From an uncultured Acidobacteriota bacterium (GTDB lineage: Bacteria; Acidobacteriota; Vicinamibacteria; Vicinamibacterales; 2-12-FULL-66-21), in the NCBI GenBank assembly GCA_963785755.1, contig CAWAXG010000075.1:676837-740836 (forward strand): a stretch of 64,000 nt of DNA. Direction: 5' to 3'. The notes beneath the pieces are model-generated. The model had not been told where the DNA came from. It searched no databases and saw only the letters and a list, made by a program, of their open reading frames with translations. This document shows, piece by piece, positions 17,800 through 61,136 of the stretch. The first letter of the stretch is position 1. Each line of letters starts with the position of its first letter. The translations under genes and the position numbers were made by a program.

Positions 17800-18897
17800 T
17801 CAGAATCCACGAACGCGGACCCAGAAGCTCTCTTCCCAGGTGCCCCCCGGAGGCACGCTCTGGAGGTCTTTGTAGAGCCCCTTGTGGGCGAGGTTCATTG
17901 CATTCGTGATGCCGACCATCGGCTCGAAGCAGATGTAGTTCCGGTCGCCCGCCCCCTGCCCAGCTCCGGCGCCCGTTCCGGGCTTCGGCTTCGGAGCGTA
18001 AATCACCATCGCACGGTAATTTGGGCCCAAAACCACGTCGAGCTCCTGCGCCTTTCCTTTCAGCGTCATCACCGCCCGGCCGGACCCGTCGCGGGCCAGA
18101 TCGCCAAACACGTGATCCAGGTCGTAGTCCTTCAACGGAATGACTTTCGGATCCGGAAAGAAGGATTCGATCGGCTGGGTTTCCCCGGTCGGCAGGTGGT
18201 TCGCGTCGAGCAGCCAGTGGCTCTTCGCCCCCACCGAAATCGTCCAGTCGTCGCGCATCGAGTCGGTCAGCTGAAAGTACGGATGGAACCCGATCGCGAC
18301 CGGCATCGGGTCCGTGCTCAGGTTGTCGATTCGCGTCGTCACCTGCATCACGCCGTCCTTCAGCGTGTAGGTCATGTCAATCGTGTGGGCAAACGGGAAC
18401 TGTTTGATCCACAGCGGGATTGCGATAGAACTCGAGCCGGCTCGTCGTCCGGGCAGACGTCGCGTCCGCCTTCACGTCCACGACTTTCCACTGGTTGTTG
18501 AAGGTCAGCAGGCCGTGAATCGGGATCTTCCCCCTGACGTTCCCCAGGGTCATGTCGAACTCGTAGCGCTTGCCGTTGGCGTAGAACGCCTGCTCGTCGA
18601 GCCGGTTCGCCCACGGTGCGAGAAAGGGATTGCCGTTGAAGCCGGGGCGCGTCTTGAACTCCTCGATCGAGGCATACGGCCACCGGAGGACGTTGTGCCC
18701 TTTCACCTTCATCTCGAACGCGAGGTTGCCGACCGACGGCAGGATCGAGATCGTCGTCTGATACTTCGAGTCGTGCAGCTCGACGACGTCGCCGGTCTGC
18801 TTCGCGGTGTACTGTTGCGCAGCGGCCGGGGCGGCGACGATCGCGAATGCGGTCACGTCAGAACCACCACTGCGGCCCGCCGTCGTGTCTGCATCAT
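17800..18897 (-). pseudogene. Exported aldose 1-epimerase family protein; two compensating frameshifts as assembled
   Basis: ATG 18897 (MMQTRRRAAVVVL...) and the C-terminal part (17800..18375, ...GFHPYFQL...) share one frame. The middle 18377..18856 (...FLAPWANRLDEQAF...) is in another. The second junction is at a GGG/CCC run near 18413-18418 (RLEFYRNP | LWIKQFPFAHTIDMTYTL). Confidence 0.7.
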
Positions 18898-22625: not shown

Positions 22626-22644
22626 TGGAGGTTGGAAGTTAACG
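22626..22644. repeat. Family A half-element, copy A3 (solo G-rich arm)
   Basis: ttggaggttggaagttaac sits in the 43-bp convergent gap. No complementary CCAAC arm nearby. Confidence 0.5.
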
Positions 22645-25318: not shown

Positions 25319-25554
25319 CGTCGGTTCAAATGTTCAAGGGTTCAGGAGTTCAGAGGTTCGGGTTCAGGGATTCAACAGTTCGGGTTCAACAGTTCGAGCG
25401 TTCAAGGTTCAGCGATCTCGCCGCTGATCTCTCGAATCTTGGACATCTGAACCTGAACCCCTGAACCCCGAAGCCTTGAACCTGAACATCTGACCCCCCG
25501 AACCCTTGAACCCGAACCTCTGAACCCTTGAACTCTTGAACCATTGAACCGACG
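25319..25554. repeat. Family B simple-word palindrome, copy B2
   Basis: CGTCGGTTCA + ~12 GTTCR words (25319-25411), a 34-nt loop, ~13 TGAAC words, then TGAACCGACG (25446-25554). The outer ~45 nt of the arms are well complementary. Fills the gap between the FadB-like stop (25569) and the ligase start (25304). Confidence 0.9.
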
Positions 25555-32627: not shown

Positions 32628-32797
32628 CGTCGGTTCAAAGGTTCAGGAGTTCAAGCGGTTCGGGTTCAGGGGTTCAGCGGTTCAAGGGTTCGACAGGGTT
32701 CAGAGGTTCAACCTCCCGCGCGAACTCTCGAACGACTGAACCTGAACCTCTGAACCCGAACCCGTGAACGCCTGAACTGCTGAACGCTTGAACCGAC
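32628..32797. repeat. Family B simple-word palindrome, copy B3
   Basis: CGTCGGTTCA + ~10 GTTCR words, loop cctcccgcgcgaactctcgaacgac, then TGAAC words ending TGAACCGAC. Fills the gap between the pcaF stop (32802) and the MetE-like start. Confidence 0.9.
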
Positions 32798-32801
32798 TCC
32801 A

Positions 32802-34013
32802 TCAGACCTTTTCAATCACCATCGCAATTCCCTGTCCCACGCCTATGCACATCGTGCACAGCGCATAGCGGCCGCCGAGGCGCCGGAGCTGATACATCGC
32901 CGTCGTGACCAGCCGCGCGCCGCTGGCGCCGAGGGGGTGGCCGATCGCAATCGCTCCGCCGAGCGGGTTCACATGCGGGGCATCGTCTGGAACGCCCAGT
33001 TCCCGGAGGACGGCGAGCGCCTGCGCCGCGAACGCCTCGTTCAACTCGATGACATCCATCTGATCGATCCGCAGGCCGGCGCGATCGAGCAGCTTTCGCG
33101 ACGCCGGCACCGGTCCGATCCCCATGACACGGGGAGCGACTCCCGCGACCGCCGCCGCGACGTATCGCGCCCGGGGGCGAAGGCTGTATTCCGTCACCGC
33201 CTTTTCCGAAGCAAGCAGCAGCGCGCAGGCACCGTCATTGATGCCCGACGCGTTGCCGGCGGTCACCGAGCCGTCGGGCCGGACGACGGGCTTGAGCTTC
33301 GAGAGCGCCTCGCGGGTCGTGTCGGGACGCGGGTGCTCATCGGTCTCGACGTTGACGGCCCCCTTGCGCTGATGGACGCTGACCGGAACGATTTCATCGG
33401 CGAGCCGGCCGTCGGCGATCGCCGCCGCCGCGCGCTGCTGGCTGCGAAACGCGAACGCGTCCTGATCCTCGCGGGACACGCCGTACGCCGCGGCGACGTT
33501 CTCCGCCGTTTCGGCCATCGAGTCGATGCCGTACGCCTCCTGCATCCGGGGATTGACGAACCGCCAGCCGAGCGTGCTGTCTTCGAACTTGATCGAACGG
33601 GAGAACGGCGCGTCGGTCTTGCTCATGACGAACGGCGCCCGCGACATGCTCTCGACACCGCCGGCGACAACCAGATCCATTTCACCCGTGGCAATCGCCC
33701 GGGCGGCGATCGCGACTGCCTCCAGGCTGGACCCGCAGAGCCGGTTGACCGTCACGCCGGGCACATCCTCGGGAAGCCCCGCGAGCAGCAACGCCATCCG
33801 CGCGACGTTCCGGTTGTCCTCGCCAGCCTGATTGGCGCAGCCATAGATCACGTCATCGATCCGGTGCCAGTCGACCCGGGAGTTGCGATGACGGAGCGCC
33901 TGAATGGGCACCGCGGCGAGATCATCGGTGCGAACGCCGGCGAGTGCCCCGCCATACCGTCCGAACGGGGTCCGCACCGCATCGCAGATATACACTGCAT
34001 TCGAGTCGGGCAT
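32802..34013 (-). CDS. pcaF: 3-oxoadipyl-CoA thiolase / acetyl-CoA C-acyltransferase
   Basis: 403 aa. N-terminus [29 protein letters not shown] and [22 protein letters not shown] are typical of PcaF/PaaJ thiolases. Active-site NRLCGSS and C-terminal CIGVGQG. Confidence 0.85.
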
Positions 34014-34030
34014 TGTCTCCTCATGGATCT

Positions 34031-34296
34031 CGTCGGTTCAGTAGTTCAAGGGTTCAAGGGTTCACGGGTTCGGGTTCAGAGGTTCAAAGGTTCGATTCAG
34101 CGTTCAAAGGTTCAAAGGTTCGATGCGGTTGCTCGAGCGACCGCGCGCCAGCGAGCGCGGCTGAGTTCCAGTTGAACATTTGAACCACGGACGCCGAACC
34201 TGAACTCTTGAACCTTGGAACTCTTGAACTCTTGAACCTTGAACCTTGAACCCTTGAACCCTTGAACCCTTGAACCCCTGAACCTTTGAACCGACG
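34031..34296. repeat. Family B simple-word palindrome, copy B4 (largest)
   Basis: CGTCGGTTCA + ~11 GTTCR words (to ~34125), a 45-nt GC loop with its own small stem (ccgcgc...gcgcgg), then ~14 TGAAC words ending TGAACCGACG. Occupies most of the divergent region between pcaF (start 34013) and the cytochrome c gene (start 34347). Confidence 0.9.
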
Positions 34297-34346
34297 ACAA
34301 TCCAGCATCGTACAACCGCCCCGATTGTCTGTATCATCGAGTTGAA

Positions 34347-35465
34347 ATGAGCATCAGGATTCCCCACCGAATATGGCGTGCGGGCTCGCTCGTCGGACTG
34401 GCTCTGGTCACTCTGGTCTGGGCGTCCGGATTGGCGCAGGAAACGGCGAAGCCGGCGCAGGTGTCGACAGAGGATGCCCGCGGTCAGGAGACCTTCCTGC
34501 GGGTCTGTTTGAAGTGCCACCCGGCGGAACGCGTGACCGCCGAGGGGCGATCGCGCTCGCAATGGGAAAACACGATGATCGCGATGCAGACTTCGCGCGG
34601 CGCCGTGATCACACCGGAAGAGTTCGACATCGTCTTGAACTACCTGACGAAGTTTCACGGACGGGATGGCGCGCCAGCTCCGGGCGGAGCTGCGCCGGCG
34701 GCGGCCGGGCGTGGGCCGCGCGCGAACGTCGGCGCGGCGGACCGGCATCGTGTGGAACCAGCCGCTGCCGCGCGCGGCCAGAAGATCTACGCCGCCGAGT
34801 GCGTCACGTGTCACGGTGCGAGCGCGCGCGGAACCGAGCGCGGGCCGAACCTGATCCGATCGACCAGGGTCCTGCGCGACCGCTACGGCAGCGCGATTGG
34901 CCCGCTGCTCAAGCAGGGCCACCCCATGCAGACCGCGACGTCGAGCGCCAGCCTGACGACGGAGCAGATCACCGATCTCTCCCACTTCATCTGGGATCGC
35001 ATCAATAACACGCTGCGAGGATCCCCGGAGTTCGACGTCAAGAACGTCCTGAGCGGGGACCCAAAGGCCGGCGAGGCCTATTTCACGGGCGAAGGCCGCT
35101 GCAGCACGTGTCACTCGTCGACCGGCGACCTCGCGGGCTACGGCAAGCGCTATCAGCCGGTCGACATCCAGCAGCGCTTCGTCTTCCCGTTTGCGCTCGG
35201 TGGGCGCGGCCGGGGCGCAGGCCGACAGCAGGTCGTCGTCACGGTGACGATTCCCGGCCGGCCGCCGGTCTCGGGCGTCCTCGTCAGCATGGACGACTTC
35301 CACGTCGCGCTGCGCGATTCGGCCGGCGACTACAGGTCGTGGGCCCGCACGGACGACATGAAGATCGCGAGAAAAGACCCGTTCGCCGCGCACGTGGAGC
35401 TGCTCGACCGCCTCACGGACAAGACCATGCACGACGTCGTCGCTTATCTGGAGTCGTTGAAATGA
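34347..35465 (+). CDS. Exported tri-haem c-type cytochrome
   Basis: 372 aa. Signal peptide ...LVTLVWASGLAQE. Three CxxCH motifs (CLKCH, CVTCH, CSTCH). Directly upstream of a PQQ dehydrogenase. Confidence 0.8.
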   Translation: MSIRIPHRIWRAGSLVGLALVTLVWASGLAQETAKPAQVSTEDARGQETFLRVCLKCHPAERVTAEGRSRSQWENTMIAMQTSRGAVITPEEFDIVLNYLTKFHGRDGAPAPGGAAPAAAGRGPRANVGAADRHRVEPAAAARGQKIYAAECVTCHGASARGTERGPNLIRSTRVLRDRYGSAIGPLLKQGHPMQTATSSASLTTEQITDLSHFIWDRINNTLRGSPEFDVKNVLSGDPKAGEAYFTGEGRCSTCHSSTGDLAGYGKRYQPVDIQQRFVFPFALGGRGRGAGRQQVVVTVTIPGRPPVSGVLVSMDDFHVALRDSAGDYRSWARTDDMKIARKDPFAAHVELLDRLTDKTMHDVVAYLESLK

Positions 35466-35485
35466 GATGGAGCACTATGACTAAC

Positions 35486-35605
35486 GTCCTCAACTCCCAA
35501 CTCTCCAACTTCGCCCCGCCTCCGCGCAGCGCGATCGGCATCGACGCGTCGCCGGAGCGCGGCGGAGAATCGGCGAGTTGGGAGTTATCGCAGACTCTTG
35601 TTGAC
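35486..35605. repeat. Family A simple-word hairpin element, copy A4
   Basis: Left arm gtcctcaactcccaactctccaacttcgcc, a ~55-nt GC loop, and a short right arm ggcgagttgggagtt. A GTTGAC word at 35600-35605 overlaps the TTG start codons of the next gene. Confidence 0.7.
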
Positions 35606-37178
35606 AGCCCTGGCCTTCGTCGCAGCCGCCTCCATGCTGGTGAGCGCCCAGGGCCGCATGGATCCCGCGAAGCTGCTGAAGCCGGCGACCGACAGCTGGC
35701 CGACGTTCAATGGTGATTACTCCGGCCGGCGCTTCAGCCCGCTGACGAAGATCACGAACGGCAACGTGCAGCAGCTGAGTCTCGCGTGGATGCACCGGAT
35801 CACCGGCACGGGGCTGGGCGCCATCAAGAGCACACCGCTGCAGATCAACGGCGTCCTCTACTTCACCGTACCCGATCACGTCTGGGCCGTCGACGCCCGC
35901 ACCGGCCGCGAGATCTGGCACTACCAGTGGCAGACGACCGGCGGCAACCATCTGGGCAACCGCGGCGTCGCGGTGCACGAGGACTGGCTCTATTTCGAGA
36001 CGCCCGACTGCTTCCTCATCTCGCTGAACCTCAAGGACGGCAAGGAACGCTGGCGCAAGCAGATCTGCGACATCGACCGCTTCTACTACGCGTCGGTCGC
36101 GCCGACGATCATCAAGGATCAGCTGATCGTGGGCGTCAGCGGCGACGACTTCGATATCCCGGGCTACATCCAGTCGCACAACGCGGAGAGCGGCGAGTTC
36201 CAGTGGCGGTTCTATACCGTTCCGCAGAAGGCGGGCGATCCCGGATCGGAGAGCTGGCCGAACGAGGAGATGGCCAGGCACGGCGGCGGCATGACGTGGC
36301 AGCCGATCACCTACGACCCCGAGCTCAACTACGTCTTCGTGACCACCGGCAACCCGCAGCCGGTGATCGCGCACAAGAACCGCCCCGGCGACAATCTGTT
36401 CACCGGCTCGATCGTCGCGGTGCGCGCCGACTCCGGCTCATTGGCGTGGGCGTTCCAATCCTCACCGCACGACACGCACGACTGGGACTCGACGCAGACG
36501 GCGGTCTTGATCGACGACGAAGCCGGCGGACAGAAGCGCAAGCTGATTGCCCAGGCCGCCCGGAACGGCCACTACTTCCTGCTCGATCGCACCAACGGCA
36601 AAGCGATCGTCTCCGCTGAGTACGTCAAGAGCAACTGGTGGAAAGGCTACGACGCCAAGGGTCAGCCGATTCCCGACCCCGCCAAGATGCCGCAGGTCGA
36701 CGGCGCACTCGTGTCGCCGAACCAGGGCGGCGCGACCAACTGGCAATCGCCCAGCTTCAGCCCGCTGACCGGCCTGTTCTACGTGAGCGCCGCGCGCGCC
36801 TACAGCATCTATTACATCTACGACCCGAGCGAGAACCCGATGGGATGGGGCGGATTCGATCGCGGCGGCTGGTCCGAGTCGATGCTCCAGGCGATCGACT
36901 ACAAGACCGGCAAGGTTCGCTGGACGCACAAATGGGAGGGCAACGCGGCGCGCAGCGGGATCGTCAGCACCGCCGGCAACGTGCTGTTCACCGGCGGTCC
37001 CTCCAACGACATCGTCGCGCTCGACGCCACGACCGGAAAGGCGCTCTGGCATGCCGGCATCAACGGCCCGATCACGAATGGCCCTATTACCTACGAGCTC
37101 GATGGACGGCAGTACGTGATCGCTGCGTCGGGAGATACTCTTTGGGCGTTCGTGCTCAACTCCACGCCGTCGAAGTGA
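35598..37178 (+). CDS. PQQ-dependent dehydrogenase (quinoprotein alcohol/sugar dehydrogenase beta-propeller)
   Basis: 526 aa. TTG start (35598 or 35601), with no ATG/GTG upstream in frame. Signal-like LTALAFVAAASMLVSAQG. N-terminus WPTFNGDYSGRRFSPL and repeated propeller W-motifs. N-terminus uncertain. Confidence 0.8.
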   Translation: MLTALAFVAAASMLVSAQGRMDPAKLLKPATDSWPTFNGDYSGRRFSPLTKITNGNVQQLSLAWMHRITGTGLGAIKSTPLQINGVLYFTVPDHVWAVDARTGREIWHYQWQTTGGNHLGNRGVAVHEDWLYFETPDCFLISLNLKDGKERWRKQICDIDRFYYASVAPTIIKDQLIVGVSGDDFDIPGYIQSHNAESGEFQWRFYTVPQKAGDPGSESWPNEEMARHGGGMTWQPITYDPELNYVFVTTGNPQPVIAHKNRPGDNLFTGSIVAVRADSGSLAWAFQSSPHDTHDWDSTQTAVLIDDEAGGQKRKLIAQAARNGHYFLLDRTNGKAIVSAEYVKSNWWKGYDAKGQPIPDPAKMPQVDGALVSPNQGGATNWQSPSFSPLTGLFYVSAARAYSIYYIYDPSENPMGWGGFDRGGWSESMLQAIDYKTGKVRWTHKWEGNAARSGIVSTAGNVLFTGGPSNDIVALDATTGKALWHAGINGPITNGPITYELDGRQYVIAASGDTLWAFVLNSTPSK

Positions 37179-37195
37179 TGACGATGACTGAAGAC

Positions 37196-37356
37196 GTCAA
37201 CTTCCAACTCCCAATCTCCAACTCCCAACTTCCAAAGCGAATGGCTCGTAGCATTGGGGTGAAAATCGCAGCGATCTACCCGATTGCACCGGCTTTCACC
37301 CAGGCGAGTTCCGGCGACTCGCTTTGGGAGTTGGAGATCGGGAGTTGGGAGTTGAC
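37196..37356. repeat. Family A simple-word hairpin element, copy A5
   Basis: gtcaacttccaactcccaatctccaactcccaacttccaaagcga (37196-37240), a 77-nt loop, then tcgctttgggagttggagatcgggagttgggagttgac (37318-37356). The arms differ by one hexamer unit. Ends 13 nt before ATG 37369. Confidence 0.9.
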
Positions 37357-37368
37357 GAGAGTGCACCT

Positions 37369-38193
37369 ATGAAATTCGCGACCTGCAACGAACACTTCGA
37401 GGGCTGGGCGTTCGATCGGCTCTGCAAATACGTGAAGAGCGTGGGCTATGACGGCGTCGAGCTTGCCCCGTTTACACTCGCCCCACGGATCACCGATCTC
37501 GGGCCGGTCGAACGCGCGGTCCTGCGCGAGCAGGCAGACGTCGCCGGCGTGCAGATCATCGGCCTCCATTGGCTGCTCGCCGGCACACAGGGCTTCTATC
37601 TCACCTCCGCGGACGAGGAGACGCGCGCGCAGACCGGCGAGTATCTGATCGAGCTTGCGAAGGCGACGCGGGATCTCGGCGGCGACCTGATGGTGTTCGG
37701 ATCGCCGAAACAGCGGTCGCTGCTCCCCGGCGTGTCCTGGGATCAGGCGTTCGATTACGCCGCGGAGACCTTTCGCCGGGTCATGCCGGCAATCGCGGAC
37801 TGCGGCGTGATGCTGTGCATGGAGCCGCTGGCGCCGGTCGAGACGGATTTCATCAACACCTGCGCCGAGGGCGCGCGTCTCATGGAAGCCGTGGCGCATC
37901 CCAACTTCGTCCTGCACCTGGATGTGAAGGCGATGTCGAGCGAGGACCGGCCCGTCGTCGATCTGATTCGCCAGTACATCCCGCGCACCGGCCACTTCCA
38001 CGCCAACGACCCGAACAAGCGGGGACCCGGGTTCGGCGACGTCGACTTCGTCCCGATCTTCCGCGCCCTGCGCGAGTCCGGCTATGACCGGTGGGTTTCA
38101 GTGGAGGTCTTCGACTACACCCCGGACCCCGAAACCATCGCGAGCAAGAGCATCGAATATATGAGGGAGACGGCTGGACGCTATTTCGATTGA
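37369..38193 (+). CDS. Sugar phosphate isomerase/epimerase (xylose isomerase-like TIM barrel)
   Basis: 274 aa from ATG 37369 (the ORF opens inside element A5). AP-endonuclease-2/TIM-barrel family pattern (...GYDGVELAP..., ...CMEPL..., ...HFHAND..., ...WVSVEVF). Confidence 0.8.
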   Translation: MKFATCNEHFEGWAFDRLCKYVKSVGYDGVELAPFTLAPRITDLGPVERAVLREQADVAGVQIIGLHWLLAGTQGFYLTSADEETRAQTGEYLIELAKATRDLGGDLMVFGSPKQRSLLPGVSWDQAFDYAAETFRRVMPAIADCGVMLCMEPLAPVETDFINTCAEGARLMEAVAHPNFVLHLDVKAMSSEDRPVVDLIRQYIPRTGHFHANDPNKRGPGFGDVDFVPIFRALRESGYDRWVSVEVFDYTPDPETIASKSIEYMRETAGRYFD

Positions 38194-39056
38194 CCGCCGG
38201 ACCGCGTGAGATCCCGCAGATTCCGGCCGCAGATCGTGCTGGCCTCGAACTTGTCCCCCTTGGGACCGGTCCAGTGCGTCTCCAGGCTGATCCAGCCCTT
38301 GTAGCCATCGCGCTCGAGCGCGCTGATCTGCCCTTTCCAGTCGATCCCCATCTCACCGACCGGGCCCCAGGTCGGCTTGAAATCCTTCACGTAACAGTCC
38401 TTGGCGTGCACGTGGACGATCTGATCCGCGGGGAGCATCGCGTACCCCTCGGGGAACGGTTTCTCTCCGAGGATCGACGCGTTCGCCGGATCCCAGAGGA
38501 TCTTGACGGCCGGATGCCGGAAGCTGGCGAACAGCTTCGCCGTTTCGCCCGCGGTCGCCACATTGCACGCGTGCTCGTTCTCGAGGGCAATGACGACGCC
38601 GCGCTTCGCGGCTTCGTCACCGAGCGCCTGAAGCGCGGCCGCGACGCGGTCGTAGGTGCGCTCCGGCTCGACGGTCCGCCAGTACCAGAACACGCGGATG
38701 ATCCGCGCGCCGGCCCGCTCGGCGACTTCGAACGCCCGCTGCGTGAGCCGCGGCTGATCCTCGTAGGTATGAGCCGAGCCGAACACGTCGTGCTGGACGC
38801 GGCTGTCCAGCGCCGGAGCATCCGGCAGCACACACTTCAGGAGCGGTGAGGCCAGCGAGACGACTTCCATGCCGTGGGCTTTGACCGCCGCGCGCACGCG
38901 ATCGACTTCGTCATCGCTCAGATCGATCATGTTCCGGCCGAACGCGACCCGCAGTTCCGCGCCGGTCATGCCGACATCCGCCATGCCCTTGAGAGCCGAC
39001 TCGAGATCGTTCGGCGAGAATTCGTCGGTGATGGCCGCGATGGGATAGACGCTCAT
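38181..39056 (-). CDS. Sugar phosphate isomerase/epimerase (xylose isomerase-like TIM barrel)
   Basis: 291 aa from ATG 39056 (ATGA overlap with the MFS stop). ...VIALENEH..., ...HVHAKD..., ...WISLETH. Its 3' end overlaps the convergent gene by 13 nt. Confidence 0.8.
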   Translation of the reverse strand: MSVYPIAAITDEFSPNDLESALKGMADVGMTGAELRVAFGRNMIDLSDDEVDRVRAAVKAHGMEVVSLASPLLKCVLPDAPALDSRVQHDVFGSAHTYEDQPRLTQRAFEVAERAGARIIRVFWYWRTVEPERTYDRVAAALQALGDEAAKRGVVIALENEHACNVATAGETAKLFASFRHPAVKILWDPANASILGEKPFPEGYAMLPADQIVHVHAKDCYVKDFKPTWGPVGEMGIDWKGQISALERDGYKGWISLETHWTGPKGDKFEASTICGRNLRDLTRSGGQSK

Positions 39057-40393
39057 TCGGGAAGTGGCTTTCCTTTGGTTTCCGGCGCAAAGGGCACCGT
39101 CGCAAGACCGATCAGGAACACGAGACACATCGTGACGCCGGCATAGCGCATCGGCTCGGGATAGCCGGCATACACACGGCTGGTCAGCAGGCCGAGCGCC
39201 AGCGGCCCGATCGCAGCGACGAACCGGCCGACGTTGTAGCAGAACGAGGTGCCGGTGCTGCGCAGGCGCGTCGGGAACAATTCCGGCAGATAGATCGCGT
39301 AGCCGCCGAACAGCGCCAGCTGGCAGAAGCCCATCATCGGAATCATCCAGAAGATGTCGCTGAAGGTGTTGAGGTTCCAGAACGTGTAGGCCGTCGAGAA
39401 CATCGCCGCGACGAAGGCGATGGCAAACGCCTTCCTGCGGCCGATCTTCTGCGTCACGTGCGTGAACACGTAGATCCCGAAGAACGCCCCGAGGTTCTGC
39501 AGCAACGAGACCATGCCGATCCAGAACGTGACCTGTCCGGGCGACAGGTTCGATCGTTCCAGCACCGTCCGGAACAGGTCGAAGCTGAAGAAGCCGATGC
39601 CCCACAAGCCGACGACGCCGGCGAACGCCAGCAGCATGCCGATGATCGCGTTGTAGCGCCAGCGCGGATCCGAGAACAGCTCCGTCATCGAGCCGCGGCG
39701 CGCCCCGGCCTTGGCTTCGCGCTGCCACCGCTCCGGCTCCTTCAACTTCTTGAACACCACGATGCAGAGCAGCGCCGGGAGCGAGCCGACGAGAAACATC
39801 GCGCGCCAGGCGCTGTCGATCACGCCCGCCGACTGCATCGAGCCCAGGATGATCCCGACGGTGGCGGCCATCATGTTGCCGACCGCCGACGACGCCTGGA
39901 GCCAGCCGAGCGCGTAGGGCCGCGCCCGATCGGGCAATGACTCGGCGACGAGCGCAACGCCGACCGCGAACTGCCCGCCGACACCGAGTCCGGTCAGGAA
40001 CCGGTAGAACGCGAAGTCCCACACGCCGACGGAGAAGACGCTCAGCCCCGTGAACATCGAATACAGCAGGATGGTGTAGACCATCGTCCGCGCGCGGCCG
40101 ATGCGATCGCCGAGAATCCCGAAATAGACGCCGCCGGTCGCCCAGCCGATGATGAAAATCGTCGTGGCGTAGCCGGCGTACTCGGCGATGTTGGCCGGCG
40201 TCGCGCCGGGCCCCAGCAGCTCGGCAATCGCGGGTCTCCTCGCGAGATTGAAGAGCTGCTGATCCATCGTGTCGAACAGCCAGCCGAGCGACGCGACCAC
40301 GAGGACGAACCAGTGGCCCCGATTGAGCTCGCGATACCAGGGCCCGGACACCTGCGCGGCGGGGGCGGAGACGGAATTGGTCGGATGCATCAT
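39053..40393 (-). CDS. MFS transporter (sugar-type, in rhamnose operon)
   Basis: 446 aa, 12 predicted hydrophobic segments, loop motif GDRIGRAR. The start overlaps the rhaM stop (ATGA). Confidence 0.85.
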   Translation of the reverse strand: MMHPTNSVSAPAAQVSGPWYRELNRGHWFVLVVASLGWLFDTMDQQLFNLARRPAIAELLGPGATPANIAEYAGYATTIFIIGWATGGVYFGILGDRIGRARTMVYTILLYSMFTGLSVFSVGVWDFAFYRFLTGLGVGGQFAVGVALVAESLPDRARPYALGWLQASSAVGNMMAATVGIILGSMQSAGVIDSAWRAMFLVGSLPALLCIVVFKKLKEPERWQREAKAGARRGSMTELFSDPRWRYNAIIGMLLAFAGVVGLWGIGFFSFDLFRTVLERSNLSPGQVTFWIGMVSLLQNLGAFFGIYVFTHVTQKIGRRKAFAIAFVAAMFSTAYTFWNLNTFSDIFWMIPMMGFCQLALFGGYAIYLPELFPTRLRSTGTSFCYNVGRFVAAIGPLALGLLTSRVYAGYPEPMRYAGVTMCLVFLIGLATVPFAPETKGKPLPE

Positions 40394-40725
40394 CGGCGAT
40401 CGGGATCCGGTTTATCGAGATGGAAGACTTCGTCGAGCGTGCGGCTGAGCGGCCGGCCGTCGTCGGTCGACGGCATCACGTCACGCATGTGGCGCCACCA
40501 GCGCTGGCAGACCTCGGTCGCCGCGACCGCCTCCCAGCGCTCCTGGGTGTCGAACTCCACGTAAGCGAATAGATCGTTGGTGTCGCGGTCGATGAAGATC
40601 GAATAGTTCTGCACGCCATGGGCCTGCAGCGTGTCGGCCAGCTCCTGCCAGATCGGCTGATGGCGACGGACGTACTCGTCCTGCTGGCCGGGATGGACCG
40701 ACATTCGGAAGGCACGCCTGATCAC
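40390..40725 (-). CDS. rhaM: L-rhamnose mutarotase
   Basis: 111 aa from GTG 40725 (GTGA overlap with the rhaI stop). (V)[28 protein letters not shown]...[18 protein letters not shown]...VCQRWWRHM is colinear with YiiL/RhaM. Confidence 0.85.
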
Positions 40726-41993
40726 GACCGCCCGGCGAGGACCTGTTCCTCGTACGTCCTGATTTCCTGCAGCCAGGCGGCGCCCGGCGGGACGTTCGAC
40801 CATTCGCAGTAGCGATCCCAGACGGCGCCGAACGGCAGGGTCTTGGTTTCTTCCAGGAGCGCCAGACGGCCGGTGTAATCGCCCGCCGCTTCGAGCGTGC
40901 GCAGCGTGTCCGCGGGTTCGAGCAGCGCCTTGAGCAGCGACTTGATCATGTTCCTGGTGCCTATCGTCCACGCGGCGACCCGGTTGATGCTCGCGTCGAA
41001 ATAGTCGAGCCCGATGTGCACACGCTCGAGGAAGTTGCCACGGACGAGCTCCTGACCGATCGCCTCGAGATCGTCGTTGAGGACGACGACGTGGTCGCTG
41101 TCCCAGCGGACGCCCCGGCTCACATGGAGCATGATCTCCGGCAGGAACGAAAGAATCGAGCTGATCTTGTCGGTGACCGTTTCGGTCGGGTGGTAATGCC
41201 CGGAATCGAGCGTGAGCAGTTTGCCACGCGAGAGCGCGTAGCCGTAATAGAACTCGTGCGACCCCACCGTATAGCTTTCGCAGCCGATGCCGAACAGCTT
41301 GCCCTCGACCGAGTCGCGATTGCAGGCCGGATCGATGTGCTCGTCGAAGATGGCGTCGAGCGCGCTGACCAGCCGCTCGCGCGGCTGCACGCGGTCGATC
41401 GGCGTGTCCTTCATGCCGTCGGGGATCCAGAAGTTCGTCAGGCAGGGCGTGTTGAGCGTCTTGCCGATGATCGCGCCGATCCGGCGGCAGGCGATGCCGT
41501 GCGCAATCCAGAACTCGCGGATCGCGTTGTCGGCGTGCGACAGCGTGAAGTTGTCGGCCGCGTTCGGATGCGAGAAGAACGTGGGGTTGAAATCCAGCCC
41601 GATGCGGAGGTGCCTGGCCCAGTCGATCCAGCCGGCAAAGTGTTCGGGACCGATCTGGTCGCGGTCGACCATGCGGCCGCCGAATTCGCCATAACTGGCG
41701 TGCAGGTTGAACCGGTGGGTGCCGGGAATCAGCGACAGCGCTTTCTCGGCATCGGCGCGCAACTCGTCCGGCGTCCGTGCCTTGCCGGGATAGTTGCCGG
41801 TCGCGGCCAGACCGCCGCCGAGCCCGGTGCCGAACCGCTCGAATCCGCCGACGTCATCTCCCTGCCAGCAATGGAGCGAGACGGACACCTCGGCCAGCCG
41901 CTTCAACGCCGCATCGGCGTTGACCCCCAGCTCGGCGTATCGTTCCTTCGCGATGTCATAGGCTCGTTCGGTTGAATGGCTTGGCATGGTCAC
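40722..41993 (-). CDS. rhaI: L-rhamnose isomerase (Pseudomonas stutzeri / rhizobial RhaI type, TIM barrel)
   Basis: 423 aa. N-terminus ...[41 protein letters not shown] is typical of this isomerase family. Followed by rhaM. Confidence 0.75.
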
Positions 41994-42039
41994 GTCCTCG
42001 CGGCCGGTTCACGGCGCCTCAGCATATCGCAAAGCTAAT

Positions 42040-42170
42040 CTCTCTCCCCCCGGGGGACTTCGTCCCCCGGACCCCCTTACACGCTCGCTCGCGGGGGCCC
42101 CCATGCCCCGCTCCGCTCTCGTGGCTCGCTCGCTTCGCTCACTCGCGACCGTCCGCGAGTCAGTCGGGTG
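42040..42170. repeat. CTCGCT/GAGCGA-word spacer with short GC hairpins (element E)
   Basis: 9-bp stem ccgggggac/gtcccccgg with a 3-nt loop (42050-42070). Then acgctcgctcgcggg...ccgctccgctctcgtggctcgctcgcttcgctcactcgcg, with further small stems (actcgcg/cgcgagt). Lies between the esterase stop (42174) and the rhaI start (41993). Confidence 0.6.
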
Positions 42171-42173
42171 CTC

Positions 42174-42824
42174 TCAGCTTAGAAGCCCCCGCACGGCCTC
42201 GATCTCGTCGTCGACCACCGTGTGCCCCATCTGCTCGTAGATGCGCTCGTCCACTCGCGCGTTCATCCGGCGGAACACCTCCGCCGTCTCGTGCACACGC
42301 TCCAGCGGAATGTGCGAATCGACGTCGCTGCAGCCCAGGAAAACCGGCGTTCCGGCAAGCGAACCCGGGTAGTCACGGGGGGTTCCTGGAGGCCCGATCA
42401 GGCCGCCGCTCAGGCCGGCGATTGCCGCATAGCGCCGCGGATGACGGGCGGCGAATTCGAGAGACAGGCACGCCCCCTGCGAAAAGCCGACGAACCCGAC
42501 ACGGTCATGTGCGATCCCCTCAGCCGCGAGCCTGGCGACCAGCTTCTCGAGGACGCCCAGCGCCGACGACAGGTACGGTTCGTTCCTCTCGATTGGAGTC
42601 AGGAACGAATACGGGTACCAGCTGTGCGCCGCTGCCTGCGGCGCCACATACGCGACATCCTTCAATCGGAACTCGCGTGCCAGGCCCAGAATATCCTCGG
42701 CCGACGCGCCCCGGCCGTGAACCAGGACAACCGTCAGCCTCGCATCCGCCGGTTGTGGACCATCGGTCAAGACCAGCTGTCCGGCATGGGGGTCGGGACT
42801 CGTGTGTGTCATGAGTGGCGTCAT
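42174..42824 (-). CDS. Phospholipase/carboxylesterase family alpha/beta hydrolase
   Basis: 216 aa from ATG 42824 (or 42812). VVLVHGRGASAEDI, nucleophile elbow GFSQGA, C-terminal ...MGHTV. Confidence 0.75.
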   Translation of the reverse strand: MTPLMTHTSPDPHAGQLVLTDGPQPADARLTVVLVHGRGASAEDILGLAREFRLKDVAYVAPQAAAHSWYPYSFLTPIERNEPYLSSALGVLEKLVARLAAEGIAHDRVGFVGFSQGACLSLEFAARHPRRYAAIAGLSGGLIGPPGTPRDYPGSLAGTPVFLGCSDVDSHIPLERVHETAEVFRRMNARVDERIYEQMGHTVVDDEIEAVRGLLS

Positions 42825-42840
42825 CGACAAGGCGGAGCGG

Positions 42841-43161
42841 TCAGCCCGCCTCACGTTCGAACGTGAGGTACAGCGGACCGGCTCCGAGAAGACCGAGCAA
42901 GGAAAACGTGCCGACCCCGGGCCGGTTGATCGCAATGAAGCGTGCGTGCTCGCCGGGACGGAGATCGAGGTCCAACGTCTTCCAGAACAGCGTGTTGTGA
43001 GCGCGAATGCGATGCTCGCCGGGAGTGACGTCGCGGGTCACGGTGTCTCCGAACAGCAGCGTGCCGAACGACTCGCCGTCGAGCGACACCACGATCTGAC
43101 GATCCCTCACGTCCTTCGGATGCCGGCGAGTCACGGTGACCCGGGCGCTCGGGTTATCCAC
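42841..43161 (-). CDS. Hypothetical protein
   Basis: 106-aa ORF with coding-like composition and a C-terminal hydrophobic segment (GVGTFSLLGLLGAGPLYL). No family recognised. Confidence 0.45.
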   Translation of the reverse strand: MDNPSARVTVTRRHPKDVRDRQIVVSLDGESFGTLLFGDTVTRDVTPGEHRIRAHNTLFWKTLDLDLRPGEHARFIAINRPGVGTFSLLGLLGAGPLYLTFEREAG

Positions 43162-43252
43162 GAGTCAATTGTATCGGGCGCGCTGCGCCGCTTGCGACTG
43201 TGACAAGCTGCAGGTAGCAGGGCGCAAGGAACAAAGAGGGAGATCGGCGGAC

Positions 43253-43258
43253 TATAAT
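43253..43258 (+). promoter_or_regulatory. Candidate -10 box (TATAAT)
   Basis: A perfect TATAAT in a GC-rich context, 19 nt upstream of ATG 43278. No convincing -35 or Shine-Dalgarno. Confidence 0.25.
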
Positions 43259-43277
43259 CCGGCGGGCTTCGGGCCAC

Positions 43278-44693
43278 ATGCATTCGCAGCGCGCTGATCG
43301 ATCGATGAGGTGGATCACCACCGCCGTGGAAGTGGCTGCCCTCGCGACCATCCTTTGTTCGGCAGCTTGTGCGTCCGCACCCCCGGCGCGAAGTGGGGCC
43401 ACGGACGAATTCGCTATCGGTGTCGCGGCCGTCGACATCACTCCCGATGAACCGATCCGCCTGACCGGGTATGGCAATCGGACGACCCCGACTGGTGAGG
43501 TGCGTCAGCGTCTGCGCGCGAAGGCTCTCGCGTTCGGCGCCGACGGTCAGCAGCCATCCGTCCTCATCACCACCGACTTGATCGGCTTGCCGATGAGTCT
43601 CACCGACGCGGTCGCGCGGCGGCTGGCGCCGGCGAAGATCGAACGGGCACGGTTGGCGATCACGGCAACGCACACGCATACCGGGCCGAGCATCGCGGGT
43701 GTGCTTCCGCACATCTTTGCCTCGCCGCTCACGCCAGACGAGACGAAGGCGATCGAACGCTACACGACGGACCTCACCGAGAAGCTGACACGCGTTGCCT
43801 CTGCGGCGCTCGCGGATCGGCGCCCGGCACGGCTCGCATTCGGTCAGGGGACGGCGCGATTCGCCGCGAACCGGCGGGTCCTGAAGGACGGCAAGTGGAC
43901 CGCGTTCGGCATCGAGGCGGCCGGACCGGTCGATCACGACCTGCCGGTGCTGGCGGTGCGGGCGCCGGATGGCGTCCTGCGCGCGGTGCTCGTCAACTAC
44001 GCGTGCCACGCGACCACTTTCGGCGGCAACGACAATTTCATTCACGGCGACTGGCCAGGATCGGTCCAGGCCCTGATCGAGGAGCAGCACCCGCAGGCGA
44101 TCGCGCTGGTGACGGTCGGGGCCGGCGCGGATGCGAACCCGAACCCGCGCAGCGCCGGCCTCCAGGATGTCGAGCGTCACGCACGCGAGATCGCCGATGA
44201 AGTGAAGCGGCTGCTCGGGACGCCGATGACACGGATCACGGCGCCGCCAGCAGGCCGATTCCGAGCGGTGGAGATCGCGTTCGACCGAGTCCCCAGCCGT
44301 CAGGAGTGGGAAGCGCAGACGTCGAGAAACGATGCGATAGGGCATCACGCTCGCGCCGTGCTCGCGCGTCTCGACAAGGGCGAGGCGATCCCGTCGACCG
44401 CGCCGTACCCGGTTCAAACCTGGACGTTCAGCAACGAACTGGCGATGGTGTTTCTCGGCGGCGAAGTCGTGTCGGATTATTCGCTGCGCCTCAAACGCGA
44501 GCTCGACGGCGCCAGGCTCTGGGTCACGGCCTACGCGAATGACGTCCCGTTCTATGTCGCGTCGCGGCGGATGATTCCGGAAGGCGGATACGAGGTCGAC
44601 CGTTCGATGACCTACTATGGGCAGCCAGCTCCACTTGCCGCGGACACGGAGGAACGAATCGTGACCGCGGTGCGGGAGCTGTTGGGGAGATGA
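43278..44693 (+). CDS. Exported neutral/alkaline ceramidase-like N-terminal domain protein
   Basis: 471 aa with a signal-like N-terminus. FAIGVAAVDITPDEPIRLTGYGNR...RAKALAF...LITTDLIGLP fits the ceramidase N-domain family. Assignment is moderate. Confidence 0.55.
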   Translation: MHSQRADRSMRWITTAVEVAALATILCSAACASAPPARSGATDEFAIGVAAVDITPDEPIRLTGYGNRTTPTGEVRQRLRAKALAFGADGQQPSVLITTDLIGLPMSLTDAVARRLAPAKIERARLAITATHTHTGPSIAGVLPHIFASPLTPDETKAIERYTTDLTEKLTRVASAALADRRPARLAFGQGTARFAANRRVLKDGKWTAFGIEAAGPVDHDLPVLAVRAPDGVLRAVLVNYACHATTFGGNDNFIHGDWPGSVQALIEEQHPQAIALVTVGAGADANPNPRSAGLQDVERHAREIADEVKRLLGTPMTRITAPPAGRFRAVEIAFDRVPSRQEWEAQTSRNDAIGHHARAVLARLDKGEAIPSTAPYPVQTWTFSNELAMVFLGGEVVSDYSLRLKRELDGARLWVTAYANDVPFYVASRRMIPEGGYEVDRSMTYYGQPAPLAADTEERIVTAVRELLGR

Positions 44694-44895
44694 GCCACGT
44701 GCAACGTGCCACGGGCTACGTGCGCACGTGCTGTCGTGCCACGCTGCCACGTGCGCACGTGCATTTTGTGCGCACGTGCATTTTGTGCTCACGTGCTTAC
44801 GTGCTTGTGCTCACGTGCTTTGTGCCCGTCGCACGTAGCACGCAGGACGTAGCACGAAAAGCACGTGAGCACTCAGCGCGTGGCACGCGGCACGT
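44694..44895. repeat. Family C simple-word palindrome (ACGTGC / CACGTG words), copy C1
   Basis: About 15 GTGC-words at ~8-nt spacing (44694-44830), then an opposed GCAC-word arm (44831-44895) ending in TTTT on the plus strand. Fills the whole convergent gap 44694-44898. Confidence 0.85.
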
Positions 44896-44898
44896 TTT

Positions 44899-45474
44899 CT
44901 ACTTCTCCGCGGGCGGACAGCTGCCTGACGCCTCACGCACCGAGACGACCTCGAACTCCTTCAGGTTGAGGTCCTGTCCCGCCGGATCGACCTTGCCACC
45001 CGGCGTTGCGGGTTGAGCGGCCGCCCCTTCGGCGGAATCCTTGATCTTTCCGACGATCTCCACCTTCTTACCCACGTGCTGCTCGGCCTGACCCTCGCCG
45101 GGTCCCGTCAATTCATAGGCCTCGCCAGCGGCGCCGCTCGTGCCGACGGCTTCTGGTGTCGCGGGTCTTTCGGCTGACGCCGTGGCGCCCGTCGAAACGG
45201 TCGCGTTCACGAGGACGAACTCATTGGCCGCCCCTGCGCCGGTCCCGGCCGCGCCTCCGGCGCCTGCACTCTTCGCGCGGCGGTAATCCGCTTCGCGCTG
45301 CACGCACCCGACGATCGTCATCTGCGGCTGAGCCGCGGCGGGCGCTGGCTCTTGCGCGGCGGGCGCACCGCCCGCGGGCGGCGCAGTAGGCTGCTGTGTC
45401 GCCTGCGCGAACACAGCCATACTCATGGCCAGCACAGCTGCTGAACACGTCGCGCCTGTAATCAATCGGTTCAT
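44899..45474 (-). CDS. Exported Ala/Gly/Pro-rich hypothetical protein
   Basis: 191 aa from ATG 45474. Signal MNRLITGATCSAAVLAMSMAVFAQA, low-complexity middle, structured C-terminus (KKVEIVGKIKD...LNLKEFEVVSV). Confidence 0.55.
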   Translation of the reverse strand: MNRLITGATCSAAVLAMSMAVFAQATQQPTAPPAGGAPAAQEPAPAAAQPQMTIVGCVQREADYRRAKSAGAGGAAGTGAGAANEFVLVNATVSTGATASAERPATPEAVGTSGAAGEAYELTGPGEGQAEQHVGKKVEIVGKIKDSAEGAAAQPATPGGKVDPAGQDLNLKEFEVVSVREASGSCPPAEK

Positions 45475-45572
45475 CGGTGCTACTCCTTCACCTGCAGAGT
45501 GATTCGCATAGCACCTTCCTGCAATGCTCAGACCGCTTTCGCGATTGAGGATGCGGTCGTCCCCCGCAGCCG

Positions 45573-46979
45573 TCACTGCGGCGCGAGACGCGGGGCCGGG
45601 CGGGGCGGGCTCTGCCGGCTCATCTCGGTGCCTCTCGTGGTGATGGAGTACTTCGCGAGCATGTTGGGACGCTCCCACGCGGGCATCGCGCGGCGGTCCC
45701 GCAGGAACTTGAAGTAGTTCGCGGCCACTTCGGCGAAGTGCGCCTCGTGGCCGACGCGGAACGCGTCGGGAATGGCGACGTGGATGTCGGCGCCGCGATC
45801 GTGCACGGCAATCCCCGGATACCGGCCCTGCAGCGCCTTGACTCTCGCGTTGACGGCTGCCAGCACCTCGGCTTTCATCGTGGCCTCGACTGGGACGACG
45901 TACAGCTCCGGCCGGAATCGATCGGCGCGGGTCTGACGCACGTCGATGCGGGCGCGCGAGCCGCGATAGAACGCGAAGTGTGAATCGCCCGAACCTGGCG
46001 ACGCTTCCCAGTCCCAGATCACGTTCAACTTCGTGTGGATCCCGCGCACGGCGTACGAGACGAGCGTGTTGCAGTAGTACTCGAGCGTGCCCCCCTTCAC
46101 CGATCCGGCGATGCTGGCCGGGAAGCCAGGTTCACCGGTGACGCGCCGAAAATCGGTTTCCGGAATCTTCGTCGGCCAGCGCTGGGCGCCGGTGATCTCG
46201 ATGTCGGCCCGATAGTCGAGCGCCTGCTCGGGAAAGAGCGTCCACTGGACCAGATCGACCAGGTGCGTGCCGACGTCGTTCAGCCCTTCGGTCTCGGCCG
46301 CATCGAAGAACCAGGCCGGCCTGATATTGGGCGCGCCCGCCACCGTCTTCATCAAGTAATGGACGCTCTCCATGTAGACGGCAGGGTCGTCCGGCGTTCC
46401 TCGCACGATCGAGCCGAACGTCGCGGGATCGTTCACGAGCTCGCGCTGCAGGATGGACGTGATTTCGAAACGCTCGGTCATGATGTCGTATGCGACGACG
46501 CCCTTCGCATCAGCGTCCGCCAGCGCCGCATCGAGCTTCTCGAGATCCGCGGAGGCCAGGATCCACGGCTTGTCGGCGAGGACGTTCAACCCGCCGGCCA
46601 CGGACGAGACGATGCGCTCGATCTTGGGGCGATTCCGGCCCGACAGCACGACGACGTTGCCCGGCCGTTCGCGGAGCATGCGCTCGAAGAAATCAGGACC
46701 CGTGTGCACCTCGACCTGCCACGACGTCGGCCGCTCGCCGCGGGTGTTGAAGGACGACACCCGCTTCAGGTGCTCGAGCAGATCCGGACCGAGCGGCGCG
46801 TAGACGTCCACGCGAGGCGCCACGTCCGGATACATTTCCTTTTGAATCAGCGCGGCGTGGAAATGTCCCGGGTCCGCGGTCATCAGCCGCACGCTCGGTG
46901 CCGCGCGTCCGCTCTGGCCCGTCACCGCCGCACCTGCGAGCACGATGGCCGCCAGCGCCACGATCGTCTTGATCTGCAT
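45573..46979 (-). CDS. Exported putative oxidoreductase (Gfo/Idh/MocA-related, oxidoreductase C-terminal domain family)
   Basis: 468 aa. Signal [35 protein letters not shown]... and a central LADKPW motif recall the secreted putative-oxidoreductase family. Confidence 0.55.
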
Positions 46980-47003
46980 CTCCGCCGCCTCGTCATCCGA
47001 TGT

Positions 47004-47246
47004 CTACTTTCGTTGGATCAGCACGATATCCGAATTGGGATGGTTGAGCGACGCCAGGATCTGGGCTTCGCGCTGAAAGCGTGCCAGCCGTTGGGAATCG
47101 GCGGCGAAGATATCCGGCAGCACCTTGAGCGCGACATCGCGCTGCAGCTCCAGATCGCGTGCACGGAAGACTTCTCCCATGCCGCCGCGGCCGATGGCGG
47201 CGACGACCTCATACGGTCCGAGACGCATACCGGGAGCGACACCCAT
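47004..47246 (-). pseudogene. Ser/Thr protein kinase, N-terminal ~75-aa fragment
   Basis: [37 protein letters not shown]...[15 protein letters not shown] gives a Gly-rich loop, the VAIK-type Lys and the start of helix C. It stops 10 codons later, 25 nt before the next gene. Confidence 0.65.
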
Positions 47247-47353
47247 GCCGAACGGCCGAAAAACCCGCCGATTATACGTCGCGCGACAGGCGATCATCCC
47301 CCGTGCGGCAGCGCCTTTGCGCTGAAGGTCGATCGCGCGGCGCGTGACCCGCC

Positions 47354-47359
47354 TATAAT
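47354..47359 (+). promoter_or_regulatory. Candidate -10 box (TATAAT)
   Basis: A perfect TATAAT 16 nt upstream of ATG 47376 of the hybrid kinase. No clear -35 or SD. Confidence 0.25.
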
Positions 47360-47375
47360 CAGCACAACTGCGCGT

Positions 47376-50406
<3,031 letters not shown>

Positions 50407-61127: not shown

Positions 61128-61136
61128 GTCATGTCG

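Follow-up and report, generated by a model that had tools for sequence, protein, structure and literature searches.

A 64-kb stretch of DNA from an uncultured member of the Acidobacteriota (the window; GC content about 66%) was analysed for a family of hairpin-forming repeats, family A, whose copies are labelled A1 to A6. Gene strands in the window were assigned from codon-position GC and the identities of neighbouring genes from Pfam; contigs and loci used for comparison carry L-numbers. The roughly 40 window genes scanned were solely metabolic, transport or regulatory by Pfam, and the neighbours of the family A copies were ordinary metabolic genes. No tRNA was found in association with the copies.

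A1 (871-966, short form) starts 25 nucleotides (nt) past the stop codon of an SDR gene (845) and ends 45 nt ahead of the ATG of a FAA-hydrolase gene (1012). It consists of a C-rich arm (C-arm, 873-903), a loop (904-933) and a G-rich arm (G-arm, 934-964) followed by GAC; Tandem Repeats Finder reported 4.4 copies of CAACTCC in the first arm and 4.4 copies of TTGGAAG in the second. A2 (11651-11743, also a short form) lies between two minus-strand genes, 11 nt past a GSDH stop codon (11755) and 13 nt ahead of a GFO/IDH/MocA ATG (11637), with AAGGAG between the element and this ATG. The half copy A3 (22626-22644) is a solitary G-arm of about 2.5 units, 25 nt past the stop codon (22601) of a BACON-repeat gene. 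A4 (35486-35589) has outer heptamer arms (35491-35510 and 35573-35587) around a GC-rich inner palindrome. The long form A5 (37195-37357) comprises CGT, a C-arm of 5.4 units (37198-37233), a core (37234-37325), a G-arm of 4.4 units (37326-37354) and ACG; it is situated 16 nt past the stop codon of the PQQ-dehydrogenase gene (37178) and 11 nt ahead of an ATG at 37369. A6 (60970-61129, long form, core 61005-61095) has the termini ACGTCAAC..GTTGACGT and lies between two minus-strand genes, 7 nt past the stop codon at 61137. TTG 60976, inside the terminal GTTGAC of A6, is the probable start of an aldehyde dehydrogenase gene.

The original prediction had placed the motif at six positions, with the five full copies taking up nearly the whole gap between co-directional genes. 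All six positions carry the motif, and the elements do take up short gaps beside genes; the co-directional setting holds for A1, A2, A5 and A6 but fails for A4, which breaks into the gene for the PQQ dehydrogenase at its ancestral 5' coding end. A scan of window positions 34000-38500 for sigma-70 promoters and intrinsic terminators returned zero terminator-like sites and no promoter, so the idea that the TTGAC ends face outward as -35 boxes was dropped. Searches of Rfam gave 0 matches at the gathering score and, at E ≤1, only sub-threshold miRNA hairpins; no Rfam family therefore matches these repeats.

Heptamer arms and a conserved core

The degenerate word GGRAGTTGGRRGTTG was searched on both strands with up to 2 mismatches, and the counts were compared with those from 100 dinucleotide-preserving shuffles: 24 matches were obtained (0.28 ± 0.53 expected), all of which fall within A1-A6. 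Each match follows the previous one at an interval of 7 nt, and a period of 7 was given for every arm (2.4-5.4 copies per arm) by Tandem Repeats Finder, which was used for the period of the repeat unit. The unit is therefore a heptamer, CCAACTY / RAGTTGG, and not the hexamer proposed originally. Similarly, the arms of A5, thought to differ by one 6-nt ACTTCC, are unequal by one heptamer, which appears as the 7-nt bulge CUUCCAA in the minimum free energy (MFE) fold.

Fold stability was expressed as MFE, with z-scores against shuffles: A5 reached -97.7 kcal/mol (z -9.9), A1 -57.6 kcal/mol (z -8.5), A6 -82.5 kcal/mol (z -6.3), A4 -62.4 kcal/mol (z -5.3) and A2 -50.8 kcal/mol (z -4.8), which bears out the hairpins of the original prediction. 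The longest and best inverted repeats of the window are the family A copies together with members of two further microsatellite-armed families, and the remaining intergenic gaps have no excess structure (z -2.1 to +2.2). The arms CCAACTY / RAGTTGG have no internal dyad, and pairing takes place solely from arm to arm.

The left arm, (CCAACTY)n, and the right arm, (RAGTTGG)n, are often bounded by (C)GTCAAC...GTTGAC(G). The sequence GTTGAC, expected at the end of every G-arm, abuts the arm in A1, A2, A5 and A6 but lies about 13 nt past it in A4 (35588-35600 between). Both A5 and A6 have (C/T)GTCAAC, which the left ends of A1 and A2 lack; where it occurs it is base-paired rather than unpaired. An unusual unit, CAATCTC/GAGATTG, is found not only in A5 but also in L022, L051, L053 and the L124 and L125 alleles of A4; in A5 itself, CAATCTC in the left arm faces the one-base variant GAGATCG in the right arm, and strain L002 has GAGATTG. 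No direct repeats indicative of a target-site duplication were seen flanking A1-A6 or the foreign copies L007b and L079, in agreement with the first reading of the window.

The loops had been described as unrelated, which is wrong for A5 and A6: these two can be aligned to one another and to their counterparts in L007b, L079, L051 and L066, from other metagenome-assembled genomes (MAGs). The shared core measures about 91 nt, with the conserved blocks TTCGA ... GGGTGRAAGTCG ... CGACTTCYACCC ... TCGAA. RNAalifold folded it as one long rod of 43 pairs, 13 of which are changed on both sides. Pairing was satisfied in 85% of cells, compared with 32-47% when the partners were slid by 1-3 columns, and covariation was 0.239, compared with at most 0.106 for slid partners. 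A leave-out covariance model, built from the four foreign cores only and with the arms excluded, picked out just two sites in the 64-kb window, the loops of A5 (E 4e-8) and A6 (E 2e-5), the next match being at E 0.33. The core scored about equally on both strands, and L007b matched L079 better as its reverse complement; the core is thus nearly dyad-symmetric itself, and its orientation relative to transcription is not assignable. Long forms are accordingly about 150-160 nt in length with a rod-like core of about 91 nt, and the short forms have heterogeneous apices.

Copies elsewhere, an interrupted gene and change between strains

Species-representative genomes were scanned with the query GGRAGTTGGRAGTTGG, which gave at least 120 loci. 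Among the matches listed, hairpins with the C-arm first and the G-arm second occurred in at least 16 Acidobacteriota/Vicinamibacterales MAGs (about 24 copies), at high-GC loci labelled Acidobacteriota, Vicinamibacterales or Vicinamibacteria. No true G-first pair was present in these 16 MAGs among the same matches, and the sole G-first call (L049) consists of two adjacent elements. To judge from these repeat-bearing MAGs, the window most probably derives from an acidobacterium of the Vicinamibacterales type. The repeat therefore has further copies beyond the window, and these are intergenic, not scattered in coding DNA. From rough gene calls, 25 copies could be classified: 18 lie between co-directional, 4 between convergent and 3 between divergent genes, and nearly all begin 0-27 nt from a stop codon, with a widely variable gap to the next start codon.

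Outside this lineage the arrangement was of another kind. The cyanobacterial and Bacteroidota loci among the matches listed are one-orientation direct arrays of the STRR type (short tandemly repeated repetitive sequences), with GGRAGTTGGRAGTTGG arrays at loci of Nostoc, Rivularia, Calothrix, Chamaesiphon and Flavobacterium. Related units form hairpins with the G-arm first in Gemmatimonadaceae (L120), Tepidisphaeraceae (L021) and a viral contig (L243). A scan of viral contigs gave 72 matches, mostly single, and no sign of phage-borne family A. The contig L243 (18 kb, IMG/VR, 64% GC) carries four G-first hairpins (401-512, 1276-1344, 8883-8965 and 9652-9742) with (GAGAGTT)n/(AACTCTC)n arms, just upstream of the starts of open reading frames (ORFs); their polarity is opposite to that of the Acidobacteriota family. 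In literature searches, no description of such elements in Vicinamibacteria or Acidobacteria was found.

Evidence of dispersal came from paralogues, from the shared variant unit CAATCTC/GAGATTG and from an empty site. L007b and L079, on different contigs of one MAG, have an identity of about 85% across the alignment, and a higher one within the arms and core; beyond the arm ends the resemblance is lost, the flanking sequences being unrelated and free of target-site duplications. The relative L130 is syntenic with the window over 32.8-42 kb (78% nucleotide identity), and in it the cytochrome c stop codon overlaps the PQQ-dehydrogenase ATG (ATGAGACAGAGC...) without a hairpin, i.e. the A4 site is empty. 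The window retains the ancestral ATG (ATGAGATGGAGC, 35462, overlapping the cytochrome c stop codon), with A4 between this ATG and the core of the PQQ-dehydrogenase signal peptide. The empty site and the ATG overlap in L130 identify A4 as an insertion into the coding 5' end. The inserted segment measures 92 nt in L124 and 83 nt in L125, in frame from the ancestral ATG in both, and 99 nt in the window, out of frame, where only TTG 35598 or 35601 is usable as a start. Either a genuine difference in frame or a homopolymer error (ACGTCC vs ACGTC) could account for the out-of-frame insert. In the other strains, gene callers read the PQQ dehydrogenase from the ancestral ATG through A4 (L124:4116-, L125:1201-).

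The paralogues with unrelated flanks within one MAG and the empty A4 site together indicate that copies spread by a route without target-site duplication. The original prediction, for which empty sites in relatives had been a proposed check, held MITE-like transposition (MITE: miniature inverted-repeat transposable element) to be unsupported by the window alone. The absence of target-site duplications stands; dispersal itself is supported by L007b/L079 and by the empty A4 site of L130.

For strain comparisons, contigs from other samples encoding identical neighbouring proteins were used. Exact-protein look-ups gave no matching contigs for the A1 and A2 neighbourhoods, and these comparisons were consequently confined to A4, A5 and A6. 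A metagenome scan with the downstream protein yielded only relatives at ≤85% amino-acid identity, which are usable for the states of orthologous sites. Difference events were counted per 100 nt inside the hairpin and outside it, i.e. in the rest of the alignment: 5.8 inside and 0.33 outside for A6 against L123, 5.3 and 0.63 for A5 against L002, 10.8 and 0 (over 1665 nt) for A4 against L125, and 19 and 1.4 for A4 against L124. Between strains about 99% identical in their flanks, the hairpins thus differ roughly 8-17 times more than the flanks do. Unit number varied by strain at A6 (vs L123), at A4 (vs L124 and L125) and at B3, a hairpin of family B described below (vs L124). Point changes occurred as well. 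The expectation that arms vary by whole units and C/T changes, as slippage predicts, is borne out by this gain and loss of units between strains and by the event counts (5-19 inside vs 0-1.4 outside per 100 nt). At A4, the GC-rich inner palindrome was much rewritten across strains and the outer arms were kept, and every variant is still palindromic.

Some sites carry altogether different sequences. In L001, whose flanks are 99.5% identical to the window, an unrelated GC-rich palindrome with GCCGCGCCGCTGAAGCGGCGCGCTACGGG arms replaces the entire A5 (window 37160-37367 vs L001:1507-1662), together with the last five or six PQQ-dehydrogenase codons, and is flanked by direct CGGCAGTAGC words. The A4 site of L126 holds a different repeat (L126:1250-1295), which is 91% similar to window 4606-4650. 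More distant relatives vary at the orthologous A5 site: L127 has a (GGAAGTT)n arm, L128 has CTCCTAG three times, overlapping the stop codon, L130 has a hairpin of degenerate CCCAA/TTGGGA, and further hairpins occur in others. An empty A4 site was seen in L130 (78% nucleotide identity) and an almost empty A5 site in L128 (82% over the adjacent gene); among strains more than 95% identical, no empty allele was seen, and the hairpin is altered or replaced instead.

Other repeat families of the window

The window contains about ten microsatellite-armed palindromes of three unit types, five of them full family A copies, and these make up most of its structured intergenic space. A period of 7 (to 8) nt is common to the unit families. 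Family B is built of GGTTCARG/CYTGAACC units of 6-8 nt with the G-arm first and well-conserved ends (CGTCGGTTCA...TGAACCGACG); its hairpins are located at 25319-25554, 32629-32797 (B2) and 34035-34292, and a single arm without a partner occupies 10187-10272. Divergent genes flank B3, whose unit number is different in L124 and whose site is empty in L130. At the B2 site (32629-32797 vs L124:88-1480), L124 (95% identity) has a perfect AT-rich hairpin (GGGGGTCGGATCTTGTATTTTCAACAT...) and an extra esterase gene; L132 has a hairpin similar to this AT-rich type. The alternative hairpins of L001, L124 and L132 had no further copy in the comparison sequences. Near the site that matches B2, L130 (1200-1440) carries palindromes of AAGGCAA/TTGCCTT and CGCAGTC/GGCTGCG. 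Family C consists of partly self-complementary ACGTGCY/CACGTGC arrays with units of 7-8 nt (44696-44895 and 62558-62675), flanked by convergent genes in one case and by co-directional genes in the other; at C1, the window and L001 are little different (2 events per 100 nt).

Further features of the window were recorded as follows. An array of three GCACGACG octamers occupies 4606-4652, at the junction of two converging/overlapping ORFs, and an MFS gene (4552-5337) that covers profile positions 2-184 of 347 is apparently truncated. A 155-nt C-rich segment (42037-42193), absent in L001 (6332-6349), replaces the last codons of a minus-strand hydrolase gene (Abhydrolase_2/DLH) and is not an obvious member of any hairpin family. 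A 261-nt tandem repeat (20216-22554, 9 copies, 88% identity) encodes the repeated BACON domains of the gene that ends at 22601. The aldose 1-epimerase is split into two minus-strand ORFs (17800-18375 and 18377-18856), which correspond to the C- and N-terminal halves of the Pfam profile and represent a frameshift, a pseudogene or a sequencing error.

Origin, possible effects and relation to known repeats

Copies of family A have dispersed to unrelated sites, one lies within the 5' end of a gene, and dyad symmetry has been kept through sequence change. With moderate confidence, we regard the family as a dispersed, lineage-specific, non-coding palindromic element resembling the REP (repetitive extragenic palindromic), MITE, ERIC and RPE repeats, with heptanucleotide microsatellites as arms, which is selfish or neutral and has possible secondary effects on RNA. 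Such an element would be copied without target-site duplication by an enzyme encoded outside this window; candidate routes are a single-strand transposase of the Y1/RAYT type (REP-associated tyrosine transposase), or template switching and illegitimate recombination. Its hypermutability may come from replication slippage in the 7-nt arrays combined with deletion and repair provoked by hairpins or cruciforms, and its placement behind stop codons may reflect where insertions are tolerated. The copies are probably transcribed, because most lie in operon-like gaps. Predicted transcripts would contain arm stems of roughly 22-33 bp, lengthened by pairing of the core, which could alter the stability of mRNA 3' ends, processing or read-through; an effect of this sort would presumably be a side effect or a secondary use.

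Several observations weigh against this account. The (C/T)GTCAAC terminus was found at about 19 of 58 element ends, i.e. about one third, so that the termini are semi-conserved. No transposase, integrase or reverse transcriptase was identified among the roughly 40 window genes scanned with Pfam, nor in the Pfam labels of L001 matching window 35654-48335, and no RAYT (Y1 HUH transposase) gene was present among the same window genes. Empty sites were seen solely in relatives at 78-83% identity, and no clean filled/empty pair was available between near-identical strains. The other 7-8-nt unit families in the window and its relatives fit generation in situ as well as insertion, and the heptamer arrays of various units at the A5 site across relatives fit it equally. 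Finally, the comparison sequences are mostly short-read metagenome assemblies, in which palindromes and microsatellites are error-prone.

The absence of asymmetry between sense and antisense strands led us to rank the selfish or neutral element first, followed by microsatellite palindromes formed in situ and then by selected RNA elements. Formation in situ, which we consider unlikely, would entail local growth by slippage, with the inverted partner arising by intrastrand template switching and the likeness between copies by convergent growth, and would equate family A with the GGGAATC phenomenon of Xanthomonas. It would account for the many 7-8-nt units that share the same architecture (GGTTCARG, ACGTGCY, AAGGCAA, CGCAGTC, CTCCTAG), for the differences in unit number between strains and for the orthologous A5 site, with its CTCCTAG x3 (L128), CCCAA/TTGGGA hairpin (L130) and (GGAAGTT)n arm (L127); placement at stop codons and length variation with no mobile-element link were likewise reported by Rehm et al. 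2015 (PMC4692102). However, it leaves unexplained the non-repetitive core of about 91 nt common to copies at unrelated sites and in different MAGs, the common order of variant units, the strict C-first polarity in at least 16 genomes, and the full A4 element within a coding 5' end, at a site that is empty in a relative. A further proposal, which appears improbable, is that an active, sequence-independent process working in 7-nt steps writes and rewrites perfect palindromes of many heptamer units (A, B, C and others) in the gaps behind stop codons of Vicinamibacterales, the agent being a dedicated enzyme or an undescribed pathway of hairpin-templated repair and not ordinary slippage and transposition. 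If true, this would explain both the retention of dyad symmetry by hairpins that differ several-fold more than their flanks and the swaps of whole hairpins between strains 99.5% identical.

Selection for an RNA function is unlikely too, and slightly more so than formation in situ: the repeats would be intercistronic or 3'-UTR (untranslated region) stem-loops acting as terminators without a U-tract, RNase III sites, 3'-exonuclease blocks or translational-coupling devices, in the last case with the ribosome at the upstream stop codon melting the C-arm and freeing the Shine-Dalgarno-like GGAG/GGAGG of the G-arm beside the downstream start. Starts 0-27 nt past stop codons, the co-directional setting of 18 of the 25 classified copies, very stable stems with pairing maintained by compensatory change, G-arms ending 11-45 nt ahead of the downstream start in A1, A2 and A5, the probable TTG starts of two genes in or beside the terminal GTTGAC, and the occurrence of a hairpin of one sort or another at the A5 site in genomes that have lost family A there all suit such a function. 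But the sense strand is the more stable in just 10 of 16 copies, G-U pairs number 50 in sense and 42 in antisense, the core scores nearly equally on both strands, and the scan of 34000-38500 found no U-tract terminator; extreme variability among strains about 99% identical and near-empty orthologous sites argue against a required site-specific function, and copies also occur between convergent and divergent genes and within a gene. A role as DNA-level sites is very improbable: G-quadruplexes of the (GGGAGTT)n G-arm, i-motifs of the C-arm or a repeat-reading protein would affect replication, supercoiling or transcription. The (GGGAGTT)4 of L123 fits the G3N4 quadruplex pattern, related heptamers form G-quadruplexes in vitro (Rehm 2015, PMC4692102) and the strands look symmetric, but most arms have fewer than four G3 tracts (one in A1, three in A5 and A6, with many units GGAAGTT or GGAGGTT, and four only in certain copies, L123 among them), a complementary arm at a distance of 16-95 nt makes a duplex hairpin the likelier structure, and no candidate binding protein was identified; the quadruplex was rejected on sequence as the defining property. 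Least credible is that the repeats are assembly artefacts or attC-type recombination sites of integrons. Palindromes and microsatellites are indeed hard to assemble, and the arms superficially recall attC core sites (YYYYAAC ... GTTRRRR vs RYYYAAC ... GTTRRRY), but this architecture recurs in independent JGI, Logan and NCBI assemblies of many studies, the neighbours are ordinary metabolic genes on both strands with irregular spacing and no cassette array, and the scan of roughly 40 window genes yielded no integrase. The attC reading, like CRISPR and retron readings, was rejected on context.

Family A is a variant of an already described sort of bacterial repeat, and is more structured than was first recognised. 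The closest known case is the inverted pairs of GGGAATC heptamers of Xanthomonas (PMC4692102); an X. campestris genome carries about 186 GGGAATC repeats, 70-75 of them close inverted pairs (Rehm 2015, PMC4692102). GGGAATC / GGGGA(C/T)T heptamers of Xanthomonas and Nostoc are over-represented between aligned ORFs, ≤50 bp from stop codons or overlapping them, and the Xanthomonas repeats have no link to insertion sequences or mobile elements, vary in length among species and have no known function (PMC4692102). Common to both systems are tandem G-rich heptamers in a genome of about 65% GC, positions near stop codons, ordinary metabolic neighbours, close inverted pairs able to form stem-loops, and variable unit number. 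Family A differs in its unit (GGRAGTT), in that nearly every copy found in this lineage is an inverted pair, in having the C-rich arm behind the stop codon, where Xanthomonas has the G-rich strand, and in that most of its arms lack the four G3 tracts needed for a G-quadruplex. Dispersal, shown in family A by the core of about 91 nt and by near-identical paralogous copies, was not described for Xanthomonas.

REP/BIME repeats and REPINs include super-families tagged at one end with a conserved, unpaired GTAG or CGTC tetranucleotide (Di Nocera et al. 2013, PMC3733652), and a CGTC end is also mentioned for the RPEs of Rickettsia (PMC3733652). Like REPs and REPINs (PMC3733652), family A is extragenic, lies mostly downstream of genes between co-directional or convergent ORFs and has no target-site duplication; inverted pairing into larger hairpins, the occasional copy in a gene and the presence of several families per genome are also shared, and more loosely the CGTC at many family A and family B ends. 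The REP unit, however, is a 20-40-nt palindrome with a 5-13-bp stem, whereas the family A arm is a non-palindromic microsatellite, and merely about one third of family A ends bear the CGTC tag. Cyanobacterial STRRs and the direct TAACTGA repeats found in Beggiatoaceae, Cyanobacteria and Bacteroidetes (MacGregor 2015, PMC4679880) are, like family A, intergenic heptanucleotide tandem arrays (PMC4679880), but run in one orientation, in many cases a short way ahead of start codons, and lack an inverted partner. From MITEs, family A is set apart by the lack of a flanking target-site duplication, and the window contains no parent autonomous insertion sequence with matching termini. ERIC/IRU repeats, the Correia elements of Neisseria and the RPEs of Rickettsia are dispersed imperfect palindromes of about 100-160 nt in transcribed intergenic DNA, with terminal inverted repeats of fixed sequence and, in Correia elements, a TA duplication. 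RPEs can also sit in frame within protein-coding genes, as A4 does in L124 and L125. We know of none among these repeats with microsatellite arms of variable unit number.

Vicinamibacteria abound in soil and have hardly been studied by molecular genetics. In the window, the microsatellite-armed palindromes are by far the DNA that changes fastest between strains. Gene callers start or extend ORFs inside the elements (the aldehyde dehydrogenase start and the PQQ-dehydrogenase N-terminus); the elements are likely break points in assemblies, and potential high-resolution strain markers. The unexplained preference of bacteria for heptamer repeats, as in Xanthomonas and cyanobacteria, is now extended to another phylum and tied to a dispersed element with a structured core. 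Family A thus makes it possible to study, in a concrete case, the spread of such repeats in the absence of a visible transposase and their possible influence on the fate of operon mRNAs.

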